A stretch of 64,000 nucleotides of DNA from Tepidisphaerales bacterium (GCA_038244055.1 JBBRTW010000001.1:4291-68290); one strand, 5' to 3'. Positions 2,948-64,000 are shown, numbered from the stretch's first letter. Numbers and translations: made by a program. Notes: generated by a model not told the origin, from the sequence alone.

Positions 2948-5308
2948 ATGCGCCACTGGGCCTTTGTCGTCTGGATTGTTGCGGGAATCCTGATCTGTTG
3001 GCCGACGCCCGCGCCCGCGGCGACGTCCAAACAGGTCGAGGATGCGATTAAGAAGGCCAAGGAGTTTTTGATCAATTCCCAGCGCGAGGGAAACTGGGAA
3101 AGCGCGCAAAAGCGCATGCCCGAGCCGCGCCCCAATGCGCTGGGGCAGGTGATGATCACCGATATCATCAATTCCAATCAATGGGGCGGCACCACGGCGC
3201 TGGTGACTTACGCGCTGCTGGCCTCGGGTGAAAGCGCGCAGGAGCCTCGGATGGCCGAGTCGCTCAAGTGGCTCTCAACGCATGAGATCAACGGCACCTA
3301 CGCCATCGCCATGCGGGCGCAGCTCTGGTATCTGATGCCGCCGGGAAAACGCAAGGAATTCGCGGAGGTGATGAAAAAGGATCGGGAGATTCTCATCACC
3401 AATATGCGCGGGGGCAAGAGCCTCCTCGGCGGCGCGCGTCGGCCGCCGGCCGGGGGAGGGCCGATGATCGGCCCGGGCGGCGTCGATCCGAACGAAGAAT
3501 TCAAGGGCTTCTACCGCTACACGGCCGATGACAACGGCTACGACCACTCGGCCTCGCAGTTTGGCGTTTTGGGCATGTGGGCGCTGGAACAGGCGGGGAT
3601 GGAATCGCCTAACGGTTACTGGAAAATCGTTGAAGATGCCTGGCTGAAGGATCAGGATAAGGCAACCGGCGGGTGGAATTATGGGCCGCTATTCCGGCCG
3701 ATGCAGCCGATTACGCCGACGATGACGGCCGCCGGTGTGGCAACCCTCTTCATCACCCAGGACTACCTGCACATGAAGGATGCGCTGGATTGCAAAGGCA
3801 ATATCAGCAACAAGGCGATCGAAGCGGGGATGAAGTGGATGACCACCAACTTCAACCAGGTGTTCAAATCGGAGTGGCCGTTCTACGCGTTATACGGTGT
3901 CGAACGCATCGGCCTGGCCTCGGGGTACAAGTATCTGGGCACGATTGACTGGTACGAGATCGGCTCGGACAAGCTGGTCGGTTTGCAGCAGCCCGATGGC
4001 GGATGGGGGACGGCGTTCGATACGTCTTTCGCGCTGCTCTTCCTGGTGCGCGGGCGTGCGCCGGTGGTCATGAACAAGCTCGAATATGCGATCGATTTCC
4101 ACGGCGAGAAGAATGCGGGAACCAACTGGAACGAGCGCCCGCGCGATGCGGCCAACGTCACCCGCTGGATGAGCCGCCAGTTCGAGCGCGATTTGAACTG
4201 GCAGATCGTCAATCTCAAGGGCTCGGTGGATGATCTGCACGATGCGCCGATCCTCTACATCACCGGCAATCAGGTGCTGAACCTGACGGCCGAGGATGAG
4301 GCGAAGCTCAAGGAATTCGTCAACCAGGGCGGGCTGATCCTGGGCAATGCCGATTGCGGGCATCTCGGTTTCGCCACGTCATTCAAGAAACTCGGCGCCA
4401 AGCTTTTTCCCCCCGGCGAGTTCAAGGAATTGCCGGCTGGGCACATCGTCTTCAATAACTTCTATCAGCGCAGCAAGTGGAAGGGTGGATTGTCGGTGCA
4501 GGGCCTGAACAACGGCGCGCGGGAGTTGATGATCCTCTTCGCCTCGGCCGACCCTTCGCGGATCTGGCAGACCGGCACTTACGGCGCGCGCGAGGAGGCG
4601 TGGCAGTTCCTGGCCAATCTCTACCTCTACATGTCGGAGAAGAAGGATTTCCGATTTAAGGGCGATACCTACATCCTCAAGCCCGATGCCAACGTGCAGG
4701 CCAGCAAAACCGCCAAGTTGGCGCGCCTGCAATATGCCGGCAATTGGGACCCCGAGCCCGGATCGTGGAAGCGCGAGTCGGCCGTATTGCACAATGAGGC
4801 GCAGCTCGATCTGACTGTGGAAACCATCCGGCTCGGCGAGGGAAAACTGGCCGGATACAAACTGGCCCATCTGACCTCCACCAACAAGTTCAAGCTGAGC
4901 GACAAGGAACGCGAGGAACTTAAGGCCTTCATCGCCGGCGGCGGCACGCTCATTGCCGATGCCTGCGGCGGCAACGGCGAGGCGGCCAACAGCCTGGAAA
5001 CAGAGCTGGCGGCCCTCTCCACCGCCAAGATCGATATTCTCAAGCAGGATCACCCCCTCTATACCGGCCTGGGCATGCCGGCCGACAAGATCGAGTACCG
5101 TCCCTTCGCCAGCAAGCAGCATTTGGGCGGCGTCCACGGCCCGCGCCTGCGCGGAGCGGAGGTCAACAACAAGCTGGCGATCATTTACAGCCCCGAGGAT
5201 CTGAGCGTCGGCATGGTGGGGCAGGCGGTCGATGGGATCATCGGCTACACGCCGGCGAGTTCGGCGGCGCTGATGAAGGCGGTGGTGGTGTATGCCTCGG
5301 GGCAGTAG
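2948..5308 (+). CDS. Secreted DUF4159-domain protein with N-terminal prenyltransferase/terpene-cyclase-like repeats
   Basis: A signal-like MRHWAFVVWIVAGILICWPTPAPA follows the Met at 2948 (alternative start 2912). NWNERPRDAANVTRWM...APILYITGNQVLNLTAEDEAKLKEFVNQGGLILGNADCG resembles DUF4159. Confidence 0.7.
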   Translation: MRHWAFVVWIVAGILICWPTPAPAATSKQVEDAIKKAKEFLINSQREGNWESAQKRMPEPRPNALGQVMITDIINSNQWGGTTALVTYALLASGESAQEPRMAESLKWLSTHEINGTYAIAMRAQLWYLMPPGKRKEFAEVMKKDREILITNMRGGKSLLGGARRPPAGGGPMIGPGGVDPNEEFKGFYRYTADDNGYDHSASQFGVLGMWALEQAGMESPNGYWKIVEDAWLKDQDKATGGWNYGPLFRPMQPITPTMTAAGVATLFITQDYLHMKDALDCKGNISNKAIEAGMKWMTTNFNQVFKSEWPFYALYGVERIGLASGYKYLGTIDWYEIGSDKLVGLQQPDGGWGTAFDTSFALLFLVRGRAPVVMNKLEYAIDFHGEKNAGTNWNERPRDAANVTRWMSRQFERDLNWQIVNLKGSVDDLHDAPILYITGNQVLNLTAEDEAKLKEFVNQGGLILGNADCGHLGFATSFKKLGAKLFPPGEFKELPAGHIVFNNFYQRSKWKGGLSVQGLNNGARELMILFASADPSRIWQTGTYGAREEAWQFLANLYLYMSEKKDFRFKGDTYILKPDANVQASKTAKLARLQYAGNWDPEPGSWKRESAVLHNEAQLDLTVETIRLGEGKLAGYKLAHLTSTNKFKLSDKEREELKAFIAGGGTLIADACGGNGEAANSLETELAALSTAKIDILKQDHPLYTGLGMPADKIEYRPFASKQHLGGVHGPRLRGAEVNNKLAIIYSPEDLSVGMVGQAVDGIIGYTPASSAALMKAVVVYASGQ

Positions 5309-5403: not shown

Positions 5404-6810
5404 TCATTCGATCGGCCCGCGCGGCGCTTCCTCGCGCATTTCGCGCGTGTGGTCCGGCAGCAGCATGGCCGCGAACATGGCGGGGATGAATAGGAATCCT
5501 CCCACGAGCAAGGGGATGCGCAACTGGCCGCTCAGGCTGTTGGCGAAGATGCCGAAGAGAATAACGCCGACAGCAGAAGCGATTCGCCCGATGTTGTAGC
5601 AGAAGCCCGCGCCGGTGGTGCGAAGAAGGGTGGGGAAAAGCGGCGGGAGGTACATGGTGAACAGGCCGAAGATTCCCGAAAAAAAACCGACCAGGGGGAT
5701 GTAGAAGTAAAGCAAGGGCATCCAGCTTCGCTCGATGCAAAAGGCGACGGTGATCGCTGCGACAAACCCCAGACACATGACGGCGATGGCCCGGCGGAAG
5801 CCGAAAATCTTCGCCAGCCAGGCCGCGAAGAAATTGCCCGGAATGCTCACGAGAACCGGGAGCATCAGCGCCGCCGCCTGCATCTGCCGCTTGTCGGGAT
5901 CGGACCAGTCTCTAATATCCGGGTGTGAGTTCATCAACTGCGGCACCCAGAACATGATCGACCACCAGGAGGTCAGGGCGCAGGCGCAGACCACGATCGT
6001 GAGGAGCGTGATCCGGCGGGTCGGCCCGCGGAAGAGGTCGGCGATGGAAGGTTGCCGCTCGGAACCCGCGCGAGCGGCGGCATTGGCGGTGTGCCATTCC
6101 TCGGGCTCGGGAACGTGCCGGCGAATCCAGAAAACAATGAAAGCCGGCAAAATCCCCACGAGGAAGACGAAGCGCGGGTTGATCCCTTTCATCAGCGATG
6201 CGGCGACGAAGGCGATGAGCACGCCGAGATTGACGGCCGTCTGGAGAACGGCGGCGATCCATGGCCGCCAGTTCCTGGGCCAGGTTTCGGAAAGAAGCGA
6301 TGACCCGACGGCCCATTCCCCGCCAATACCCAGGGCCGCCAGGAACCGGAAGATGAGCAGGTGCCACCACTGAGTCGCGAAGGCGGAGAGCCCGGTGAAA
6401 AGGGCGTAGGTCAGGACGGTGAGCGACAGCGCGCGCGCCCGTCCCATGCGATCACCCAGACGCCCGAAAAATCCGCCGCCAAGCGCCCAGCCGATGAGGA
6501 ACGCGGCCTGGATCCAGGAGGATTTCTGCTTGACGATGGCATCGGAGGAATTGACAGGCGAGGCGGGATCGGCGGTCAGCAGGATGGCGACGAAGGAGGC
6601 GGCCACCATCGTGTAGAGGTGCATGTCCAGGCCGTCGAAGAGCCAGCCGAGCCATGCGGCGATACCGGATTTCCATTGGGCGGGGGTGAGGTCGCGGAGG
6701 GTGGAGGCTTCGCGGGGAGGAGCGGTTGTGGTAGCGGGAGGGGAGTAGGGGAGAACCGCGGCGTCAACCTCACCGCTGGCGACTGGGGTCGTCGTAGTTG
6801 GGTGGTCCAT
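5404..6810 (-). CDS. MFS transporter
   Basis: 468-aa ORF that is highly hydrophobic with about 12 predicted helices. The GRLGDRMGRARAL loop resembles MFS motif A. Confidence 0.8.
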   Translation of the reverse strand: MDHPTTTTPVASGEVDAAVLPYSPPATTTAPPREASTLRDLTPAQWKSGIAAWLGWLFDGLDMHLYTMVAASFVAILLTADPASPVNSSDAIVKQKSSWIQAAFLIGWALGGGFFGRLGDRMGRARALSLTVLTYALFTGLSAFATQWWHLLIFRFLAALGIGGEWAVGSSLLSETWPRNWRPWIAAVLQTAVNLGVLIAFVAASLMKGINPRFVFLVGILPAFIVFWIRRHVPEPEEWHTANAAARAGSERQPSIADLFRGPTRRITLLTIVVCACALTSWWSIMFWVPQLMNSHPDIRDWSDPDKRQMQAAALMLPVLVSIPGNFFAAWLAKIFGFRRAIAVMCLGFVAAITVAFCIERSWMPLLYFYIPLVGFFSGIFGLFTMYLPPLFPTLLRTTGAGFCYNIGRIASAVGVILFGIFANSLSGQLRIPLLVGGFLFIPAMFAAMLLPDHTREMREEAPRGPIE

Positions 6811-6861
6811 CCAGTGGCCTCAATGTGGGTGCTTTGAAAGATAGCGAAGTGCGGAAACCCT

Positions 6862-7755
6862 TCATGACGGGACCGGGTGAGTCCGCAGCCATTCGCGGAC
6901 ATCTTCGAGATTCTTAAAATCCAGAATCGCTTCTCCAAGCTCTTCAATCGCCGGCCAGGGCAATACATCAATCGTCTCGTGCAAGTCGGTTGGAAGTTTC
7001 CCGAACCGCTTGGTCATTTGCCGCAAAACCAGCTTCTGCTGGGCCATTTCACCCCAGCCAGTCATGATTTCCATAAATTGCTCCTTGCTGGGCGAAGGCA
7101 CTTGCTCGATCGATGCCTTGAATACCTTAGCCTCCGCCGCCGTAAGCTTCAAATACGAATCCATAAATCCGCCCACGATTCGCAATTTGGCGGGGTTCAG
7201 ACGCAATGTGGCCAGGATTCGCAGGCATTCCAGCTTAACTCGCGCCCGATCTTCGAGGGCAATCCGCATCCGCGCCATCAGGGCCGTCGCCACCGGATTG
7301 GGCCTCCGCACATAATCGCGCCAGTTCAGTCGATTGAGCTGGATCACTCGATATCGAAAAGTCAAAACGTCGAGATCGGGAAACGTCAGGCAATACTCCT
7401 CCGGTTCAGCCCTCTGCGGCGACACATAGGAGAACAGCACGATCGGATAGACCGGAAGATTGTGCTTTTCGTGCAGCCGCGCGAAATACTTGAACATGCG
7501 CCGGGCGAAGTCCGTATCGGGCGATGCCTGGGTTTCGACATGGACAAGAAAGAACGCCTCGCTCCCTTTGAACTTCGCCCGCGCCAGGACATCGACCTCG
7601 TGCCTCTCGCCCGAGGTGACATCCGTGAAGATTTCCTTGTCCATGAAGGCGATCGAATCGCGATCGAGATACTGCATCACCTCAGGGAAAAACAGATCGA
7701 TAAAATCCGCAAAGAACGTCGTCAACAGTTCCTTGAACAATCGATCGTGATCCAC
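6862..7755 (-). CDS. Rpn-family recombination-promoting nuclease / putative transposase (PD-(D/E)XK) with DUF4351-like C-terminus
   Basis: The N-terminus MDHDRLFKELLTTFFADFIDLFFPEV, the EVDVLARAKFKG...FLVHVETQ core and the C-terminal LVLRQMTKRFGKLP segment are typical of this family. Confidence 0.7.
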   Translation of the reverse strand: MDHDRLFKELLTTFFADFIDLFFPEVMQYLDRDSIAFMDKEIFTDVTSGERHEVDVLARAKFKGSEAFFLVHVETQASPDTDFARRMFKYFARLHEKHNLPVYPIVLFSYVSPQRAEPEEYCLTFPDLDVLTFRYRVIQLNRLNWRDYVRRPNPVATALMARMRIALEDRARVKLECLRILATLRLNPAKLRIVGGFMDSYLKLTAAEAKVFKASIEQVPSPSKEQFMEIMTGWGEMAQQKLVLRQMTKRFGKLPTDLHETIDVLPWPAIEELGEAILDFKNLEDVREWLRTHPVPS

Positions 7756-57141: not shown

Positions 57142-57487
57142 CGTGTGATTCACCGTCAGCCTTAATTCTCGGCCGTCCCTATGCGCCGGCGTTGCGACCG
57201 GGTACAGGTTGCCGAGAGTACACTAAAACCCCATCTCCCGCCTCGTTTGGATCAACTGCCGCTGGATGTGAACACGCAGGGAATTTCGCCAAGGCAACCG
57301 GCACCGATGCCGCAATTTCCCTGCCCGATGAGACCAATCCAGCGCGAATGCTTGTGCCAACGCTTCGCCACAGCATCGGTTGAGATTACCGGCGAGCCCA
57401 ATCTACATAGCCTGCGGCAGGGTTGACCGCCGGGCCGATGGTGAGGAAAACACTGTAAAACAAGGGGAAAATGATCAATTGGCAGGG

Positions 57488-57736
57488 ATGGGCAGGACTG
57501 AGGAAACAAAGCGGGCGAAGGGGGTCGAACCCTCGACAAACCCGCTGGATTCTGCTGGAAAAGTGACTGCTTTTGACCTGGGTGGCGTGAAAGCGGCACT
57601 CGGAGAATTGGCGGAGTGCCCAATTGACCCCGACTTGACCGACGTGGCGAACGCCTGGCCGACACTGCCGGCCGCGCTCCGGGCGGGCATCGTGGCGATG
57701 GTGAATGCATCGGCCAGCAACGGGGTCAAGCCATGA
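57488..57736 (+). CDS. Small hypothetical protein (island-associated)
   Basis: The ORF ends with ...LTDVANAWPTLPAALRAGIVAMVNAS. The start is very uncertain (ATG 57380, ATG 57488 or GTG 57563). The stop overlaps the next ATG (ATGA at 57733). Confidence 0.35.
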   Translation: MGRTEETKRAKGVEPSTNPLDSAGKVTAFDLGGVKAALGELAECPIDPDLTDVANAWPTLPAALRAGIVAMVNASASNGVKP

Positions 57737-58281
57737 GTAAAGCATCAAGCCGGGGTAACGTCTTTTCAGCAGGCCATGCGCCGCCTCCAGCCTTGTTCGA
57801 TATCAAGCTCCTGGCGTTCATCCAGAAGCGCGGCGGGCGCGTCAGCGTTCGGGAGCTTTCCCGGAGCCTGGCTACCTGCCGCCATGCCGCAGATGCCCGA
57901 AGCCGTCTGGAGGCCCTGGTGGACGCCGGCATCGGCAACTGGACCTATCTCCGTCCTGGCGCCAAAGGCGGACGGCCGGCTCGGCTGTTCATCCTGACGA
58001 TTGGGCCTGGTGCGGTCGAGCCGCTGGTCATGGCGGCCAGGCAGGCATCGACGGTGCGGGGTAGCGCATACACTCGACTGATTGCCCGCGACACGGTGCG
58101 ATTCTTGAACCGCTTCGGCTGCGTGCCCTGCCGGCAAATCTCCGAGGCGCTCTCCCAAGTAACTCGCGCCTTGGACAAAGTTTCGCTCGACGACTTCCCC
58201 GCCCCCATGTTTCGCCGAACCATCCGGATGACCGCCCGAGGAAGTTTCAGCGTTGAATGGGTCAATGTGAGCCCATGGTAA
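57733..58281 (+). CDS. Hypothetical protein with probable winged-helix N-terminal domain
   Basis: LLAFIQKRGGRVSVRELSRSLA...EALVDAGIG...GGRPARLFIL is a wHTH-like pattern. It is translationally coupled to the upstream small ORF. Confidence 0.45.
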   Translation: MSKASSRGNVFSAGHAPPPALFDIKLLAFIQKRGGRVSVRELSRSLATCRHAADARSRLEALVDAGIGNWTYLRPGAKGGRPARLFILTIGPGAVEPLVMAARQASTVRGSAYTRLIARDTVRFLNRFGCVPCRQISEALSQVTRALDKVSLDDFPAPMFRRTIRMTARGSFSVEWVNVSPW

Positions 58282-58380
58282 CCATGTCGGGGAGTTACTG
58301 TTTCCGTGAGCGATTTCGACTTCGGATTGCGACACAACCACGGGCGGAGCGGGCTGGATGCCGAGTTGTGGCGGAAATGC

Positions 58381-58410
58381 GCAAACAGGCCCCGCCGCCT
58401 GTTTGCGTTT
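58381..58410 (+). terminator. Hairpin terminator candidate
   Basis: Stem gcaaacaggc-cccgcc-gcctgtttgc followed by gttt. The T-tract is weak. Confidence 0.45.
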
Positions 58411-58598
58411 CATCTCACGCGCATCCGAGGACCCGCGCCCGATTCATTGCCCTAAGCGATCAACTCGCCCTCAATGATAATTCACGCCGGCGCGGCCGAT
58501 CCGGCATGGAAATCGTCATCCTGCGCATATTGAAAAACGTGTTAGTCTATATCGGCCATTGACTTACATGAGATGAAGTATGCGCCGAATGCGCTGTC

Positions 58599-59444
58599 TT
58601 GTGTCGCATGGGTATGGCGGACGATAATCCATCCATCAATTCGAAACACTTCTCGAAGGGAAGAGCGATGCCCAGCACACCCGCCGCCAAACGTTCACCG
58701 ATTAAACAACCTTCGCGTCCGCAGGCCGGCGAAAGTTTGATGCACCAGCGCAATATGCGGTTGCTGGACATCGCCTATTTCGTCTTCCTCCCCGCGATCT
58801 TCATCATGCTCGCGGCTTTTGAGTGGCTCCGATACTGGTTCCGGGTCCCGGTTTCGCCCTGGATTCTCACCATCACGGCGTTGGTCGTCGCCACCTACTC
58901 TGCAATCCGGGGCCGAAGGATCTGGCGCGGTTTGGCCGCGCTGGAGCTCGGCCTTCGCGGCGAACGAACCGTGGGCCAGCGTTTGGAGGAGTTGCGGGCA
59001 ATGGGCTATCACGTCTTCCACGACCTGTGCGAGGACGCCTGGAATATCGACCATGTGCTGGTCGGCCCCGGCGGCGTCTTCGCGGTGGAAACCAAGACGA
59101 TTTCCAAGCCTAATGACCATGATGCCAAGGTGACCCACGACGGCGAAAAGCTCCTGGTTGATGGCTTTGAGCTCGACCGCGATCCACTCAAGCAGGCGAC
59201 GGCGGCCGCCCGCCATGTGCAGAAGGTTCTGCGAGAGCAGACGGGCCAGGATGTGAAGGTCCAAGCCGTGGTGGTATTCCCCGGATGGTTTGTCGAAGGA
59301 ACTTCACGCAGCGCGGATGTGTATGTTTCCAATGACAACTATCTGATGAAGCGATTCGAAAACGAGGGCGGTCGCCAGGTCCTCGACCCGCGCGACGTGG
59401 ATCTTTACGCGGCGGGAATCGATCGGTATCAGCGACGTACGTGA
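58599..59444 (+). CDS. Membrane-anchored NERD (nuclease-related domain) protein
   Basis: Two TM helices (LLDIAYFVFLPAIFIMLAAF, ILTITALVVATYSAI) are followed by GYHVFHDLCEDAWNIDHVLVGPGGVFAVETKT. The start is ambiguous among several Met codons. Confidence 0.72.
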   Translation: MCRMGMADDNPSINSKHFSKGRAMPSTPAAKRSPIKQPSRPQAGESLMHQRNMRLLDIAYFVFLPAIFIMLAAFEWLRYWFRVPVSPWILTITALVVATYSAIRGRRIWRGLAALELGLRGERTVGQRLEELRAMGYHVFHDLCEDAWNIDHVLVGPGGVFAVETKTISKPNDHDAKVTHDGEKLLVDGFELDRDPLKQATAAARHVQKVLREQTGQDVKVQAVVVFPGWFVEGTSRSADVYVSNDNYLMKRFENEGGRQVLDPRDVDLYAAGIDRYQRRT

Positions 59445-59455
59445 TGGGCAGAGCG

Positions 59456-60097
59456 CTATCCCAAGGGTTTGAATAGCAGTTCCGTACCGATGGTCTTGAT
59501 CAGCTCATTGAGGTAGGAGTCGATGTATTGCAGGCATTGCGCCTGATCGGTCGAGCCGACTTCCGAAAAGACCACCCGTAAAGTCGTGTGTTTATCGCGG
59601 ACTGCGGCGAACGCCGCGGCGGTTGCCTGCACGCCATCTGCGGTCACTAGGAGGCGCAATACTGCTTCGAGGCAGACGATGCGACAGCGCAGCGCATCCC
59701 GCACGGCCTGGAGGGTGGGGGCCGCCGCCAACGCCCGCATCGCGCGTTTGTCGCCCGAGGCTATGTAATAGGCGGGGTTCTCGGCCGCCAGTGCCAGGAG
59801 CAGGGCCTCGCCTTCATCAATCGCTTCGACTTCGTTAAGGAGTTGGAAGAGCGCATCGTCGGCGGGACGGTCAATCAGGGGCGCAATGCCGTTGCACTCG
59901 GCGACCGCCTTTCGTCGCACGGCATCGCTATAGTTCTTCTTAAAAGCCTTCCCCCGGTCGAGCTGGTGCGGCAGCGCCTCCAGCCGGCGAATGTTCCCGT
60001 CCTCCACCCCCAGCAGCGCGGCGACGCGTCCGATCAACCCGGCCGAGGCCAGGAGGATGAAGATATCGGAGTCAATGATGAGCAGCCGGTCTGCCAT
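59456..60097 (-). CDS. PIN-like domain protein (putative nuclease) with C-terminal extension
   Basis: LLIIDSDIF (Asp9/Asp11), EAIDEGEALLLALA and YIASGDKRA give a PIN-type acidic pattern. AAGGA lies 7 nt upstream of the ATG, and only 12 nt separate it from the upstream gene. Confidence 0.5.
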   Translation of the reverse strand: MADRLLIIDSDIFILLASAGLIGRVAALLGVEDGNIRRLEALPHQLDRGKAFKKNYSDAVRRKAVAECNGIAPLIDRPADDALFQLLNEVEAIDEGEALLLALAAENPAYYIASGDKRAMRALAAAPTLQAVRDALRCRIVCLEAVLRLLVTADGVQATAAAFAAVRDKHTTLRVVFSEVGSTDQAQCLQYIDSYLNELIKTIGTELLFKPLG

Positions 60098-60109
60098 CCC
60101 CGTCCTTTC

Positions 60110-61183
60110 TCAATCACAGGAATCGCCAATGGATAGACACGAGAGGAACCGGGCGGACGACTCGGGAAGGTCACCCATGTCGACGTGCCGCTTCAAATGC
60201 TCGGCGATGATGGCATGGGCGCCGGCATCTTCTCCCAGCGTCTGGAGCGCCAACTGACCTGGCCCCCAGCGATTGGCGGAGCGTGCATAGACTAAGGCGA
60301 CAGTGCCAGCAGCCACACCATTCTCAGCGCCCCAGCGCTGGGCGGCTTTGGCAAGCTTGGCGGCGGTCAGCCCCCACTCGGGGCGGAACCCCGGCTTCTC
60401 CTGCCCAGTCAAAACCTTATTGGCAAAGGCGTCCGCCTGCTTCTCCTGGGCGTCATCATCAACGCGGTCAATATCGGCATCCACGAGGGGTGCTTCGCCC
60501 GGATTGACATGTCCCAGGAACAGGTGCCCCATCTCGTGAGCCAGGTGGAAGGCAAGCCACGGCGGACTTTGCTTCACCGAACCCAGGACAATCACCGGGA
60601 CATTGCCACAGTAGAGCGCCAAGCCGGCAAACTTCTTTGCCGCCCGGGGAAGGCGCTCGGGAAGAACGTGGAACACGACAATTCCGCTCCGCCAGGCGAA
60701 GGTCAGAAGCGATGCCAGATCGACGGCTGGTGCATCGGCCAAGATGTGCCCCCGCACCTTTTCCGCCACTACAGACCCGCCGAAGGGCGCAGGAGCCGTC
60801 GTATGCGCGACAACCAGCGCTGCCAGGCGCTGCGCGATGTGGACGGCGGGGCGCAACTCCTCGGCGGGCACGTTTTTATGCCGCTTCAGGCGAAAAGAGC
60901 CGATTGCGGGCACGGGCAGGGCGCGCTTTGGATCACGCAGTTCGGCGATCTTGAAGCCTAATTGTTTGGCGATCGCGGCCTCGGCCAGCGCGCGATTGGC
61001 GGGCACGGCGGCGAGCTTGTCTTCCCACCAGTCGGGTAGCACGACCCCTTTCAGAAACGCGGCGTCAAAGCCGCGTTCCTTTAGGCGGTCGTACAGATCC
61101 TGCATGGGCTTGGCGTTCTGGATGATGGCTCTCCTTGGCGTGGTAGGCATGAATTGTAGCATGCCGGCCGCGCCCTCGCACAT
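60110..61183 (-). CDS. ImmA/IrrE-family (COG2856) HEXXH metallopeptidase
   Basis: LAFHLAHEMGHLFLGH plus downstream EKQADAFANKVL is typical of the family. The start is ambiguous (61183, 61162 or 61105). Confidence 0.72.
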   Translation of the reverse strand: MCEGAAGMLQFMPTTPRRAIIQNAKPMQDLYDRLKERGFDAAFLKGVVLPDWWEDKLAAVPANRALAEAAIAKQLGFKIAELRDPKRALPVPAIGSFRLKRHKNVPAEELRPAVHIAQRLAALVVAHTTAPAPFGGSVVAEKVRGHILADAPAVDLASLLTFAWRSGIVVFHVLPERLPRAAKKFAGLALYCGNVPVIVLGSVKQSPPWLAFHLAHEMGHLFLGHVNPGEAPLVDADIDRVDDDAQEKQADAFANKVLTGQEKPGFRPEWGLTAAKLAKAAQRWGAENGVAAGTVALVYARSANRWGPGQLALQTLGEDAGAHAIIAEHLKRHVDMGDLPESSARFLSCLSIGDSCD

Positions 61184-61266
61184 ACTGACAGTCGAGGCAT
61201 CTGATCGGAATTAACCTGAAGTTCCCTGGCTGATCTCCGGGTCGCCGCATGCGGACGCTGGTCCGC

Positions 61267-62361
61267 CTAGCGCCGAGTGGCCGACGCGAGGCTCTGGACG
61301 TAATGCCAAGGACATTCCCGGATTGCCTTCCTCGTCCGGGCTCGGTGCTTGACCCACCACGCCACGAGCGACACTGCGATCCCGATTCCTGCCAAGACCG
61401 GAGCGAAGACGGTCCCGGCAACTGTGGCAGCGCCCGCAGCCGCCATGGCGGGCGTCGAAATTGCCAGTGCCGACACCCCCGTCTCAATCCGGGCCTCTCG
61501 CAATGCCTTGCGGTGGTCGCGGATCGCCGATTTGATTTCGCCCCGTTTCTGCACAATGAAGTCCTCGATCGCAGCCGGGTCCTTCAGTTCGGCGCAGCCT
61601 ACGCCCAACGCCTCGACCGCCTCACGAAAGCGGCGGCGCTCATCGGCCCGTCTTTCTCGGAAATCGAGTATCTGGCGCATGGTCAGATTGGCGACTGAAT
61701 CCGCTGTCGGGAATTCGATCCCCAGCCGCAGCAGGAACGACCGTCTTACCGCCTCGCCGTCACACTCTTCCGGGAGCGCGTCGGCGTGCAAGAGGTACTC
61801 GCCCCCAGGCGCGACACGGGGGACGTCGGTCACCATGGGACAGCCCATTTCCCGCGACATCACGGTGGCGAGGCACGCCATGTAGCCCGCGCTGAGGTCG
61901 ACCGCCATTCTCATCCAGTCACCGCGTTTCTCTGCACGACCGCTCCTCAATAAAAGATCTCGCAGTTCCTCGCTCATTTTGCTGCTGTACACGTAATCCG
62001 CACCCCTCCTATTGGCGAACGTGCCCCACATGGTCGCCGACTGTTCGGATTCCCGATTCGCCCAAGGCAGTACCCGCGCCTTGAAAAGCTCCGCCGCAGC
62101 GACGGCGTAATCCCGGGGATCGCCGGTGAGGAGGCATCCGGCCCCGGCGGCCTGATTCACCTCCTTCGAGTCCCGCACCTCGAATCTGAGGGCGTTCGGG
62201 ACGATCCGCCGCACCCGCTCCCAATACAGCAAGCTAGATTTAAGCCAACCAAGGTCTGGTTTGAGATTCGGATAATAAAGTGCGGTGCCGGCTTCCGTTC
62301 TGAACCGCACCGGCGCACTCTCCTCCGCTTCGTCCAATGGTCTTCTCGTCGTCATGGCCAT
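61267..62361 (-). CDS. DUF6236-like protein with C-terminal transmembrane segment
   Basis: ALYYPNLKPDLGWLKSSLLYWERVRRIVP near the N-terminus resembles what I recall of DUF6236. The C-terminal hydrophobic stretch is AGTVFAPVLAGIGIAVSLVAWWV. A strong AAGGAG SD is present, and the gene starts 17 nt after the methyltransferase stop. Confidence 0.5.
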   Translation of the reverse strand: MAMTTRRPLDEAEESAPVRFRTEAGTALYYPNLKPDLGWLKSSLLYWERVRRIVPNALRFEVRDSKEVNQAAGAGCLLTGDPRDYAVAAAELFKARVLPWANRESEQSATMWGTFANRRGADYVYSSKMSEELRDLLLRSGRAEKRGDWMRMAVDLSAGYMACLATVMSREMGCPMVTDVPRVAPGGEYLLHADALPEECDGEAVRRSFLLRLGIEFPTADSVANLTMRQILDFRERRADERRRFREAVEALGVGCAELKDPAAIEDFIVQKRGEIKSAIRDHRKALREARIETGVSALAISTPAMAAAGAATVAGTVFAPVLAGIGIAVSLVAWWVKHRARTRKAIRECPWHYVQSLASATRR

Positions 62362-62378
62362 TGCTCCTTTCTTTTGGT

Positions 62379-64000
62379 CTATTTCCCCACCGCGTACACC
62401 TTGAGTACCTCGTCCCCGTAATGATTGATCACCTTCACCGCGATCTTCCCCGACGCGGGCCGGGGGAACGGGCGGCTCCTGGTCTGGTACAGGTCGGCCC
62501 AGGCCGATTCATCCACCTCAGCGCGCAGGGCTTTCTTGAGCTTCTCATAGGGCTCATCCGCCCCGGTGAAATAGGCGTGGCGGACGAAGAAGCTCTCATC
62601 GTTGTAGTTGGTGTCGATAAACCAGCAGGCGATGTCATCGGTGGAGTTGGAGCGAATCTCCCCCGTGGTGGGGTCATAGACGTCCAGGCCGCGAATCTCG
62701 GCCACCAGCATTCCCTCGGGCACATCCGGGTCGTAGCGGACCGCTCCGGCGTCGGCGGCGGGCTTTTTCCCTTTGGCGGCGGCAGCGCCGGCCGGCTTAT
62801 CGCCGGAGAGGATCGCCACATCCGGCTCGCCGAAAACCATGAAGAGATTCCCCGCCCCGGTCTTCTTGAGCAGCTCATCCCCCATCGACAAATCCGGGTT
62901 CATCTTGACCGACAAAACCGTGAGCTTGCCGTACCGTTTGGCCTCCTCCGCTACGTGTGGGTCAAAGGCGAAGCCGCAGACCAGCAGGATGTCGAACCCG
63001 ACCCCCTTCACCGTCTCCATGGCCGCATCCTTGACCAGCCGCGGCTCGACCGTGCCGAACTCCGGGCCGATGCAGATCGCGGCCCGGCGGGGCTTGCCGT
63101 CGGCGTCCGCGTACCGCCCCTCGCCGCAGATCCACTCGCCCGGGTAAATCTCGACCGAGTCGAACTTCAGCCGCTGGCTCTTGACCGTGTTCTGCACCCC
63201 CGCCTTCTTGAGGTTCTCCAGCATGGTGTTGGTGAAGTCGCTCCCGGCGAGCATCTTCATCGTGAAGCCCAGGTCGGTCGGCTTGTTGGCCGCCCGCTCC
63301 TTGGCCTCGACACTGATCGTCCGGTGCGGGGAGAGGCTCTCGACAGTGAACGGCCCGGCGACGCGCAGGCGGCCGGCGTCGGCGTAGGGCTTGTCGAAGA
63401 GGGTCTCGGTATCGGCGTGTTTGGCGATCGCGGCGTCGATCTCGCGGCGGGTCATGCCCTCTTTAATGTCCGGGTTGTTGGCGATGGATTTGAGCGTGAC
63501 ATGGGGGACGCGCTGGTAGACGAAGCCCTTGCGCACGTCGCCGTCGAATGCCGCGGAAGGATTCACCACGGAGGACACGGAGGGCACGGAGGCGGACAAC
63601 TCGGCTTCCTTCTTGCGGCCCTCGGGAGAGTCGGAGAGGAGGTAGTACGGGAAGCGGGCGCACATCAGGCGAGTGCGGGCGAGGGCCAGGGCAACGCGGC
63701 TTGTGTCGGTAGTGATCCAGCGACGGCCCCATTGCTCGGCGACATAGGCAGTCGTGCCGCTACCACAAGTGGGATCGAGGACGAGATCGCCGGGGTCGGT
63801 GGTCATCATGATGCAGCGTTCCACCACCTTCACTGATGTTTCGACGACGTACCGCTTGTCACTCGCAAATCCGGCAACGACGGTATCAGCCCAAAGATCG
63901 CTGATCGGCATGGCCGGGAAGTCATTGATAAACCTTACGTAATACAGTCCCCCACTAGTCGCCTCCAGGCGCCTCGCGGCGAGCAATTTCGTCATGCCGG
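62379..64000 (-). CDS. Site-specific DNA methyltransferase, beta-class N6A/N4C (Mod-like), 5'-truncated by the window edge
   Basis: AdoMet motif I is LVLDPTCGSGTTAYVAEQWGRRWITTD. A long C-terminal domain ends ...KIAVKVINHYGDEVLKVY, as in large Mod-type enzymes. The catalytic (D/N)PP(Y/F) motif is expected beyond 64000. Confidence 0.82.
   Translation of the reverse strand, partial: GMTKLLAARRLEATSGGLYYVRFINDFPAMPISDLWADTVVAGFASDKRYVVETSVKVVERCIMMTTDPGDLVLDPTCGSGTTAYVAEQWGRRWITTDTSRVALALARTRLMCARFPYYLLSDSPEGRKKEAELSASVPSVSSVVNPSAAFDGDVRKGFVYQRVPHVTLKSIANNPDIKEGMTRREIDAAIAKHADTETLFDKPYADAGRLRVAGPFTVESLSPHRTISVEAKERAANKPTDLGFTMKMLAGSDFTNTMLENLKKAGVQNTVKSQRLKFDSVEIYPGEWICGEGRYADADGKPRRAAICIGPEFGTVEPRLVKDAAMETVKGVGFDILLVCGFAFDPHVAEEAKRYGKLTVLSVKMNPDLSMGDELLKKTGAGNLFMVFGEPDVAILSGDKPAGAAAAKGKKPAADAGAVRYDPDVPEGMLVAEIRGLDVYDPTTGEIRSNSTDDIACWFIDTNYNDESFFVRHAYFTGADEPYEKLKKALRAEVDESAWADLYQTRSRPFPRPASGKIAVKVINHYGDEVLKVYAVGK

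Follow-up and report, generated by a model that had tools for sequence, protein, structure and literature searches.

Gene layout of the locus

Near one end of a 64,000-nucleotide (nt) stretch of DNA from a Tepidisphaerales bacterium (JBBRTW010000001.1), hereafter the window, four consecutive open reading frames (ORFs) on the minus strand encode a DNA methyltransferase of Mod type, a DUF6236-like protein, a zinc-peptidase of the ImmA/IrrE (M78) type and a PIN-like protein. A preliminary description of the sequence had suggested that the four genes could be a single, modification-linked and protease-controlled nuclease defence system, without a Res subunit and outside the named systems considered there. 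The genes are arranged as follows:

62379..64000, minus strand: 3' part of the methyltransferase gene mod (ORF listed as 62379..63995+), open at the window edge
61267..62361, minus strand: DUF6236-like gene, 364 amino acids (aa), Pfam DUF6236
60110..61183, minus strand: ImmA/IrrE (M78) zinc-peptidase gene, 357 aa, Pfam Peptidase_M78
59456..60097, minus strand: PIN-like (VapC-fold) gene, 213 aa, recognized by AlphaFold and Foldseek

The ORF listing agrees with the preliminary description on the four consecutive minus-strand genes, and the spacers calculated from the coordinates are 17, 83 and 12 nt. The gene products named there, which are a beta-class methyltransferase, a membrane-anchored DUF6236-like protein, an HEXXH peptidase of the ImmA/IrrE type, a PIN-like protein and, just beyond the four genes, the product of a convergent gene with membrane helices and a NERD domain, are likewise supported by the domain, motif and structure evidence given below. 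No terminator-like sites were seen on the minus strand between the four genes, and the G+C content, both overall and at third codon positions, is unremarkable across all genes of the locus.

The shared strand, the short spacers and the lack of minus-strand terminator-like sites favor the proposal that the four genes form one system, in which the membrane protein and the nuclease would take the place of Res. Against it stands the probable size of the second spacer. The start conserved in the peptidase family corresponds to M27 of the ORF (MQDLYDRLK..., near position 61105), which is located 26 codons into the listed frame and is likely to be the true start of the protein. With this start, the spacer after the DUF6236-like gene widens from 83 to ~161 nt, which is enough for the peptidase and PIN-like genes to have a promoter of their own.

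The peptidase and PIN-like genes as a two-gene module

The peptidase and PIN-like genes adjoin in every related locus in which both positions can be read, as they do in the window, with the peptidase gene immediately upstream on the same strand and a gap of 8-13 nt, or an overlap, between the two. Homologues of the PIN-like protein come mainly from Planctomycetota-type metagenome-assembled genomes and from metagenomes. The pairing is kept in the most distant member, locus L043, in which the PIN-like protein is 35% identical and the 350-aa protein encoded upstream aligns over its full length to the peptidase profile (hhalign 1e-44). Judging from gene order across these loci, the two genes form a strictly conserved two-gene module.

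The peptidase contains a Pfam Peptidase_M78 domain (7.6e-7) with the motif HEMGH, and the residues H216, E217 and H220 of the HExxH motif, together with H225 and E247, are invariant in its family. In having a zinc-peptidase domain of this type with its HEXXH motif intact, the protein agrees with RmrA, the antitoxin of RosmerTA. When the family profile is compared with the PDB, CapP (7t5t) is the best match (9e-6), and the PADLOC models matched by the family are capP (13/13 members), RmrA (12/13, best 2e-9) and PD-Lambda-2_B (12/13). In PHROGs, the peptidase matches phrog_18577 over its full length (5.6e-58). The first ~130 aa of the family form a conserved N-terminal region of its own. From these matches, the peptidase is presumed to be an RmrA/CapP-like protein that acts as the antitoxin or sensor of the pair.

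The PIN-like protein is modeled confidently by AlphaFold, with a predicted local distance difference test score of 93.9, and the top Foldseek matches of the model are PAE2754, VapC11, PAE0151 and VapC30 (probability 0.77-0.99, template modeling score by target 0.51-0.65). Five acidic residues, D9, D11, E97, D116 and E144, are invariant in the 18 sequences of the family that were aligned, which argues for an active nuclease. The protein matches phrog_15597 (4.6e-22) in PHROGs. None of the 18 members matches a Pfam family at E-values up to 1, and sequence-profile comparison with the PDB and a search of NCBIfam gave no match for the family. By its structural model, the protein has a VapC/PIN-like fold, and it is presumed to be the nuclease toxin of the pair. 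A word-indexed search had made the family appear tiny (19 proteins), a result that was overturned by an exhaustive profile search, in which the family comprises 1692 representative clusters. In two loci, L006 (1766-2391) and L021 (1052-1677), the match to the PIN-like protein falls into two overlapping pieces in different frames next to an intact peptidase gene, which suggests a frameshift in this lineage, representing either inactivation of the toxin or an assembly error.

ImmA-type antitoxins have been reported to pair with PIN-like toxins, and RosmerTA consists of the toxin RmrT and the zinc-peptidase antitoxin RmrA (Millman et al. 2022, bioRxiv 10.1101/2022.05.11.491447; Ernits et al. 2023, PMC10440598). 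The pair of the window resembles RosmerTA in that both are two-gene operons in which an M78/ImmA-type peptidase protein of ~330-390 aa stands beside a variable toxin, and both are found on phages and in defence hotspots. A second likeness is to the three-component toxin-antitoxin modules composed of a PIN-like protein, a DUF955 (COG2856) protein and a helix-turn-helix (HTH) protein, e.g., those with DUF4411 or COG2405/DUF3368 (Matelska et al. 2017, PMC5499597). In these modules too, the PIN-like nuclease gene lies directly downstream of the DUF955/M78 peptidase gene; in contrast to them, the PIN-like family of the window matches no Pfam PIN family and no HTH component was seen.

The third relative is CapP of the CapH/CapP pair of CBASS, which shares the M78 HEXXH core with the peptidase and is its closest solved structure by profile. 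It differs in its surroundings: the window pair has neither a CapH-like HTH repressor gene nor CBASS genes next to it, and the partner of the peptidase is a PIN-like protein. The likeness to CapP nevertheless allows for a regulatory role, in which the peptidase would cleave a repressor of the restriction operon, as in ImmA/ImmR, IrrE/DdrO and CapP/CapH, and the PIN-like protein would be an accessory and not a toxin. The rank of CapP among the PDB matches and the match of all 13 family members to the capP model fit with such a role, and ImmA-type peptidases are known to cleave repressors. However, an HTH repressor gene is found beside the pair in no locus, the pair persists where there is no restriction or other defence operon to regulate, and the invariant acidic residues of the PIN-like protein favor an active nuclease, all of which makes the regulatory role very improbable.

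The methyltransferase and its restriction family

The product of mod has a Pfam N6_N4_Mtase domain (8.8e-14), and both the motif DPTCGSGTT and the C-terminal ...KIAVKVINHYGDEV are present. It matches the PADLOC model MTase_III (PDLC03632) with an E-value of 2.9e-173, the match ending at profile position 982/983. The fragment begins near residue 390 of relatives that are 943-986 aa long, i.e., ~540 C-terminal residues are encoded in the window and ~1.2 kb of the gene lies beyond its edge. Its identity is 58-70% to the Mod proteins of loci L001, L007, L020, L029 and L030, and 46-70% to Mod proteins that adjoin the Res family annotated at NCBI as "BPTD_3080 family restriction endonuclease". By homology, mod is assigned to the methyltransferases of a Type III-like restriction-modification family whose partner Res is this endonuclease. 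The Res family is very large and well conserved, with >8000 homologues at an E-value of 1e-50 or better; the Res partners are ~1000 aa long (~1010-1063 aa in the loci in which the pair is embedded) and have a ResIII helicase domain in all relatives.

The order of the two genes bears directly on the system first proposed, which had been built on the premise that a Mod of this type precedes its Res and on the lack of a Res gene downstream. In all of the 20 loci with both genes visible (five complete embedded loci, the decayed L026, L029 and thirteen annotated plasmid records from five phyla), res is found upstream of mod on the same strand, with 0-4 genes between them, so that the premise fails. 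The observation itself is correct: tblastn found no Res-like sequence in the whole 64-kb window (best E >0.2), nor are there relics of res near the peptidase/PIN pair in the window, which speaks for a Res-less system as far as the window reaches. The upstream side of mod, however, lies beyond the window, and the missing res downstream of mod carries no weight because in this family res sits upstream, which is off the window here. The caveat in the preliminary description that a res gene could lie upstream of mod anticipated this order. From the relatives, res would be expected upstream, beyond base 64000. The contig is 70,069 nt long, and the ~6 kb outside the window, if they are on the mod side, would fit the remaining 1.2 kb of mod and a 3.1-kb res.

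The family is similar to the classical Type III systems EcoP15I and EcoPI in that Mod contains an N6_N4 methyltransferase domain and in that Res, in the relatives, is a ResIII protein of ~1000 aa. It differs from them in the order of the genes, res then mod, which is the reverse of the classical mod-res order, and in the variable cargo slot between the two. BPTD_3080-type Mod proteins (~950 aa) are also much longer than the Mod of EcoP15I.

Genomic contexts of the peptidase/PIN pair

In eight Planctomycetota-type loci, including the closest relative of the window (L025), the pair lies between res and mod (L001, L007, L017, L020, L023, L025, L028 and the decayed L026/27). The complete order Res - peptidase - PIN - Mod, with spacers of 8-43 nt, is found in L001, L007, L020, L025 and L028, whereas L023 and L017 show the two halves of it, each cut by a contig end. 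In the decayed locus (L026 7526-12248/L027), 174 aa of the Res N-terminus are left, followed by the intact pair, by an NmeDI_C gene and by 328 aa of the Mod C-terminus; here, the toxin module has outlived the decayed restriction genes around it. With the window counted, the pair is tied to the BPTD_3080-type restriction family in ~9/15 informative loci, a non-random association that is far above chance adjacency. As a side observation, a 63-residue match to the Res C-terminus shares sequence with the 3' end of the PIN-like gene close to where the contig of L023 stops (6738-6926); a misassembly or a local duplication may explain it.

The pair is also found on its own. In L002-L006 and L019, it is free-standing among housekeeping genes, with GH28, gyrA, LptF/G, M42 peptidase and Nuo-type genes as neighbors. 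In neighbor-joining trees of both pair proteins, embedded and free-standing loci interleave, and in both trees the window groups with the restriction-embedded L025, to which its proteins are 58-59% identical.

A further context is that of prophages. Records of Enterobacter soli and Klebsiella contain full-length homologues of the peptidase followed by a 212-aa protein, and the Enterobacter 212-aa protein is homologous to the PIN-like family by profile comparison (hhalign probability 97.9%, E 3e-13), with the same acidic motifs aligned. This pair sits in a P2-like prophage, flanked by the replication endonuclease gene gpA and the portal gene; Rousset et al. defined this position as the P2 defence hotspot. 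A homologous pair is present in 25/5426 complete E. coli genomes, and the position between gpA and the portal gene was seen in the one genome inspected. The following homologues of the pair are located in the P2-like gpA-portal hotspot:

L048 4501-6141 (E. coli MS 57-2)
L044 5034-6674
L047 5013-6656

In strain MS 57-2, the pair consists of WP_000181463.1 and WP_000636523.1. The hotspot pair is annotated only as "ImmA/IrrE family metallo-endopeptidase" and "hypothetical protein", and the main text of the paper on the P2/P4 hotspots makes no mention of it. Two routes alone led to these enterobacterial homologues, matches of the peptidase in plasmid records and the comparison of profiles; direct tblastn gave nothing for the PIN-like protein in plasmids and nothing for the peptidase in phage records, and a scan of viral contigs gave nothing for the PIN-like protein. 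The distant pair of L043 (1462-4794), whose genes overlap by 23 nt, lies beside genes with Beta_protein and Phage_P4_cII domains, which belong to the gop-beta-cII set of a P4-like satellite hotspot.

The cargo slot between res and mod

The space between res and mod is a variable slot, which is filled in 8/14 of the loci found by way of Mod or Res alone. It is empty in six plasmids and holds single hypothetical genes (139-336 aa) in four. Elsewhere, the cargo consists of a DUF7380/DUF4209 protein (Chlorohelix plasmid), of Bro-N, MJECL33 and two more small genes (L029), or of UPF0175 and DUF3368, another antitoxin/PIN-like pair (Picosynechococcus pAQ5), while the slot of Shinella is an unannotated 3-kb gap. 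The Res of L029 is 72% identical to that of L001, yet the cargo of the two loci differs, with Bro-N and other genes in place of the pair. The res-[cargo]-mod arrangement (L029-L042, L049) looks like a hotspot, so far unexploited, where accessory or defence genes gather, and it could be mined in the same way as the P2/P4 hotspots and the genes embedded in Type I loci were. None of the papers available to the literature search describes the order res - peptidase - PIN - mod, "BPTD_3080" or DUF6236.

Some plasmids also have genes on the same strand after mod, namely a 3'-5' exonuclease gene in four and CBASS in one. The exonuclease, a protein of ~690 aa annotated as "3'-5' exonuclease", is encoded directly 3' of mod in four proteobacterial plasmids (L034 8503-10602, L038 8883-10940, L039 7701-9794 and L041 6320-8437) and may be a third conserved component in the proteobacterial-plasmid branch.

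The presence of PIN nuclease modules inside restriction operons brings up a different role for the pair, that of a guardian of restriction. In this role, the pair would be coupled to the Type III-like enzyme, kept inactive for as long as Res-Mod is intact, and would fire when a phage anti-restriction factor disables the enzyme; or, as an addiction module, it would penalize cells that lose the restriction cassette. There is a documented precedent in PrrC of the EcoprrI Type IC locus (see also RloC), in which the gene of a latent nuclease lies inside a restriction-modification operon, just as the pair of the relatives lies between res and mod. PrrC differs in that it is a single anticodon nuclease of the ABC-ATPase type, has no peptidase partner and belongs to a Type I locus; moreover, the pair of the window is not inside the operon, as it follows mod with another gene in between. 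PIN toxins that are transcriptionally coupled to restriction-modification genes have been described as well (Matelska et al. 2017, PMC5499597), although their link is with Type I systems and not, as here, with a Type III-like res/mod operon.

The guardian role gains from the short spacers (8-43 nt) that hold the pair between res and mod in the five complete loci, with L017 and L023 as partial cases, and from the interleaving of embedded and free-standing loci in the trees, which means that the association is either old or repeatedly re-formed. In addition, the identities of Res and peptidase to those of L001 fall together across 5 loci, the slot of pAQ5 is filled by a different PIN toxin-antitoxin pair, and in L026/27 the restriction genes have decayed around an intact pair, as would be predicted for an addiction module. 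On the other hand, the pair is free-standing in at least five loci of housekeeping genes and occurs in P2 hotspots without a BPTD_3080-type restriction system. The slot also holds unrelated cargo or nothing, close restriction operons such as those of L029 and L001 carry different cargo, and the coupling to Res and Mod is argued from gene position. Taken together, the guardian role is considered rather unlikely for the pair, whose embedding may bring no more than joint transcription and joint transfer. The same doubt applies to the wider idea of a dedicated slot into which PIN-nuclease toxin modules are recurrently taken up to serve the BPTD_3080-type enzyme as guardians or addiction partners. 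If this were true, Type III systems would have their first PrrC-like arrangement, and one in which the toxin is protease-gated. With PIN toxin modules found repeatedly inside these operons, restriction and abortive infection may be coupled here in a setting other than Type I systems.

The DUF6236-like gene

The match of the second gene to Pfam PF19749 is just above the gathering threshold (1.8e-6, 27.8 bits vs 26.2) and covers residues 225-357 only, i.e., the C-terminal third. The public annotation of the gene, P0020, starts two codons later and is 362 aa long, and the PF19749 mark is present on P0020 and on six homologues. A hydrophobic segment at residues 305-338 supports a C-terminal membrane anchor. 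The N-terminal alpha/beta domain is confidently modeled by AlphaFold, and a fold search of the model against the PDB gave no credible match, all probabilities being <=0.18.

The ten homologues of the protein (P0021-P0030) sit alone in unrelated contexts (HicAB, integrase, GmrSD). No Mod, peptidase or PIN-like gene was found near them, and no DUF6236-like homologue was found in the loci with the peptidase/PIN pair or with the Mod family. In L014 (1971-8383), the DUF6236-like gene lies beside a phage-type integrase, a pair consisting of a T4-type RNA ligase and a PNKP-like kinase/phosphatase, and GmrSD; in L009 (~4300-4760) and L010 (~3670-4100), it lies beside HicAB and small unknown genes. Such island-like contexts hint at a mobile or defence-associated role for DUF6236. 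From these comparisons, the gene is best read as a passenger of variable islands and not as a conserved partner of its neighbors.

A probable composite of three units

The locus as a whole is likely to be a composite of three same-strand units, which are mod, a passenger gene and a RosmerTA-like pair, and not one four-gene machine. What was claimed for the four genes jointly in the preliminary description has to be divided: the pairing of peptidase and PIN-like protein and the tie of this pair to the methyltransferase family recur in related loci, while neither the DUF6236-like gene nor the order of the window does. Besides the position of res and the ~161-nt gap, the four-gene, Res-less system has against it that the DUF6236-like gene is in no related locus and that all three genes downstream of mod are found elsewhere without it, an outcome that the preliminary description had itself named as one half of what would refute its proposal. 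Seen against the comparative context, this system appears largely refuted, and we give it very little chance. The idea that the combination lies outside any named system falls as well, since the pair is of the RosmerTA or PIN + DUF955 kind and mod is Type III-like. The kinds of units involved are thus already known, and the Res-less, unclassifiable system falls away.

As three units, the locus could work in the following way. Mod would methylate the recognition sites of the host, and a Res of ~1000 aa, with a superfamily 2 (SF2) ATPase and a nuclease, would cut unmodified DNA. The pair would be a mobile module that is complete in itself and, like RosmerTA, works as a toxin-antitoxin or abortive-infection system; its PIN-like protein is a putative latent nuclease toxin directed at RNA or DNA. 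The RmrA/CapP-like zinc-peptidase would neutralise this toxin and probably sense an infection cue; the cue would free the nuclease, and the infected cell would be arrested. The DUF6236-like gene may be an unrelated passenger that was inserted between mod and the pair, and the position of the pair beside mod may represent a rearranged version of the order res - peptidase - PIN - mod of the relatives. Of this picture, the comparisons show that the two genes are constantly paired, that their catalytic residues are intact, that they reside in defence hotspots of phages and that they are recurrently embedded in a restriction operon.

Several findings weigh against the three-unit reading. The order mod - X - peptidase - PIN is present in no other locus, which makes the window a singleton arrangement, and the Res of its contig is deduced from relatives, being unseen in the window. 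The pair, known from its sequence, differs from RosmerTA in several respects: the peptidase gene comes first, no N-terminal HTH, which is frequent but not universal in RmrA, was detected in the peptidase with Pfam or NCBIfam, and the ~130-aa N-terminus is particular to the family. The matches to RmrA, CapP and PD-Lambda-2_B cover the M78 core only, with modest E-values that range from 1e-6 (window) to 1e-10 (best member). Whereas the PADLOC run that had been suggested for the locus matched MTase_III, RmrA and capP, it left the PIN-like protein unmatched at E-values up to 0.1, the RmrT models included, and for the PIN fold Foldseek gave weak E-values (0.14-0.7) despite the high probabilities. 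The toxicity of the pair, its neutralisation, its trigger and its RNA or DNA target are those that knowledge of the families would predict.

As a constant combination of a distinctive ImmA/IrrE-type peptidase with a PIN-like family that lacks a Pfam model, the pair is a defence candidate, and its presence in the P2 hotspot of E. coli makes it a ready candidate in a tractable host.

Neighboring genes

A fifth gene, convergent with the four, follows the PIN-like gene:

58599..59444, plus strand: NERD-domain gene, 281 aa, Pfam NERD

The Pfam NERD match is strong (3.8e-18), and hydrophobic segments at residues 52-79 and 85-103 correspond to two N-terminal membrane helices. A possible identity as a MAD6 kinase was rejected, as the NCBIfam match is weak (E 0.001; cut-off 460 bits) and reflects the shared NERD domain only. 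No NERD match was found in the loci related to the peptidase/PIN pair or to Mod; in terms of gene context, the NERD gene is a neighbor only, unlinked to the other four genes in any relative.

Farther out, the ~1.4 kb between the esterase and NERD genes (57154-58598) have a single ORF of 182 aa (57733..58281, plus strand), for which no family match was found in Pfam, NCBIfam, PADLOC or PHROGs. At this segment, housekeeping genes (GH127, esterase) give way to the variable region.

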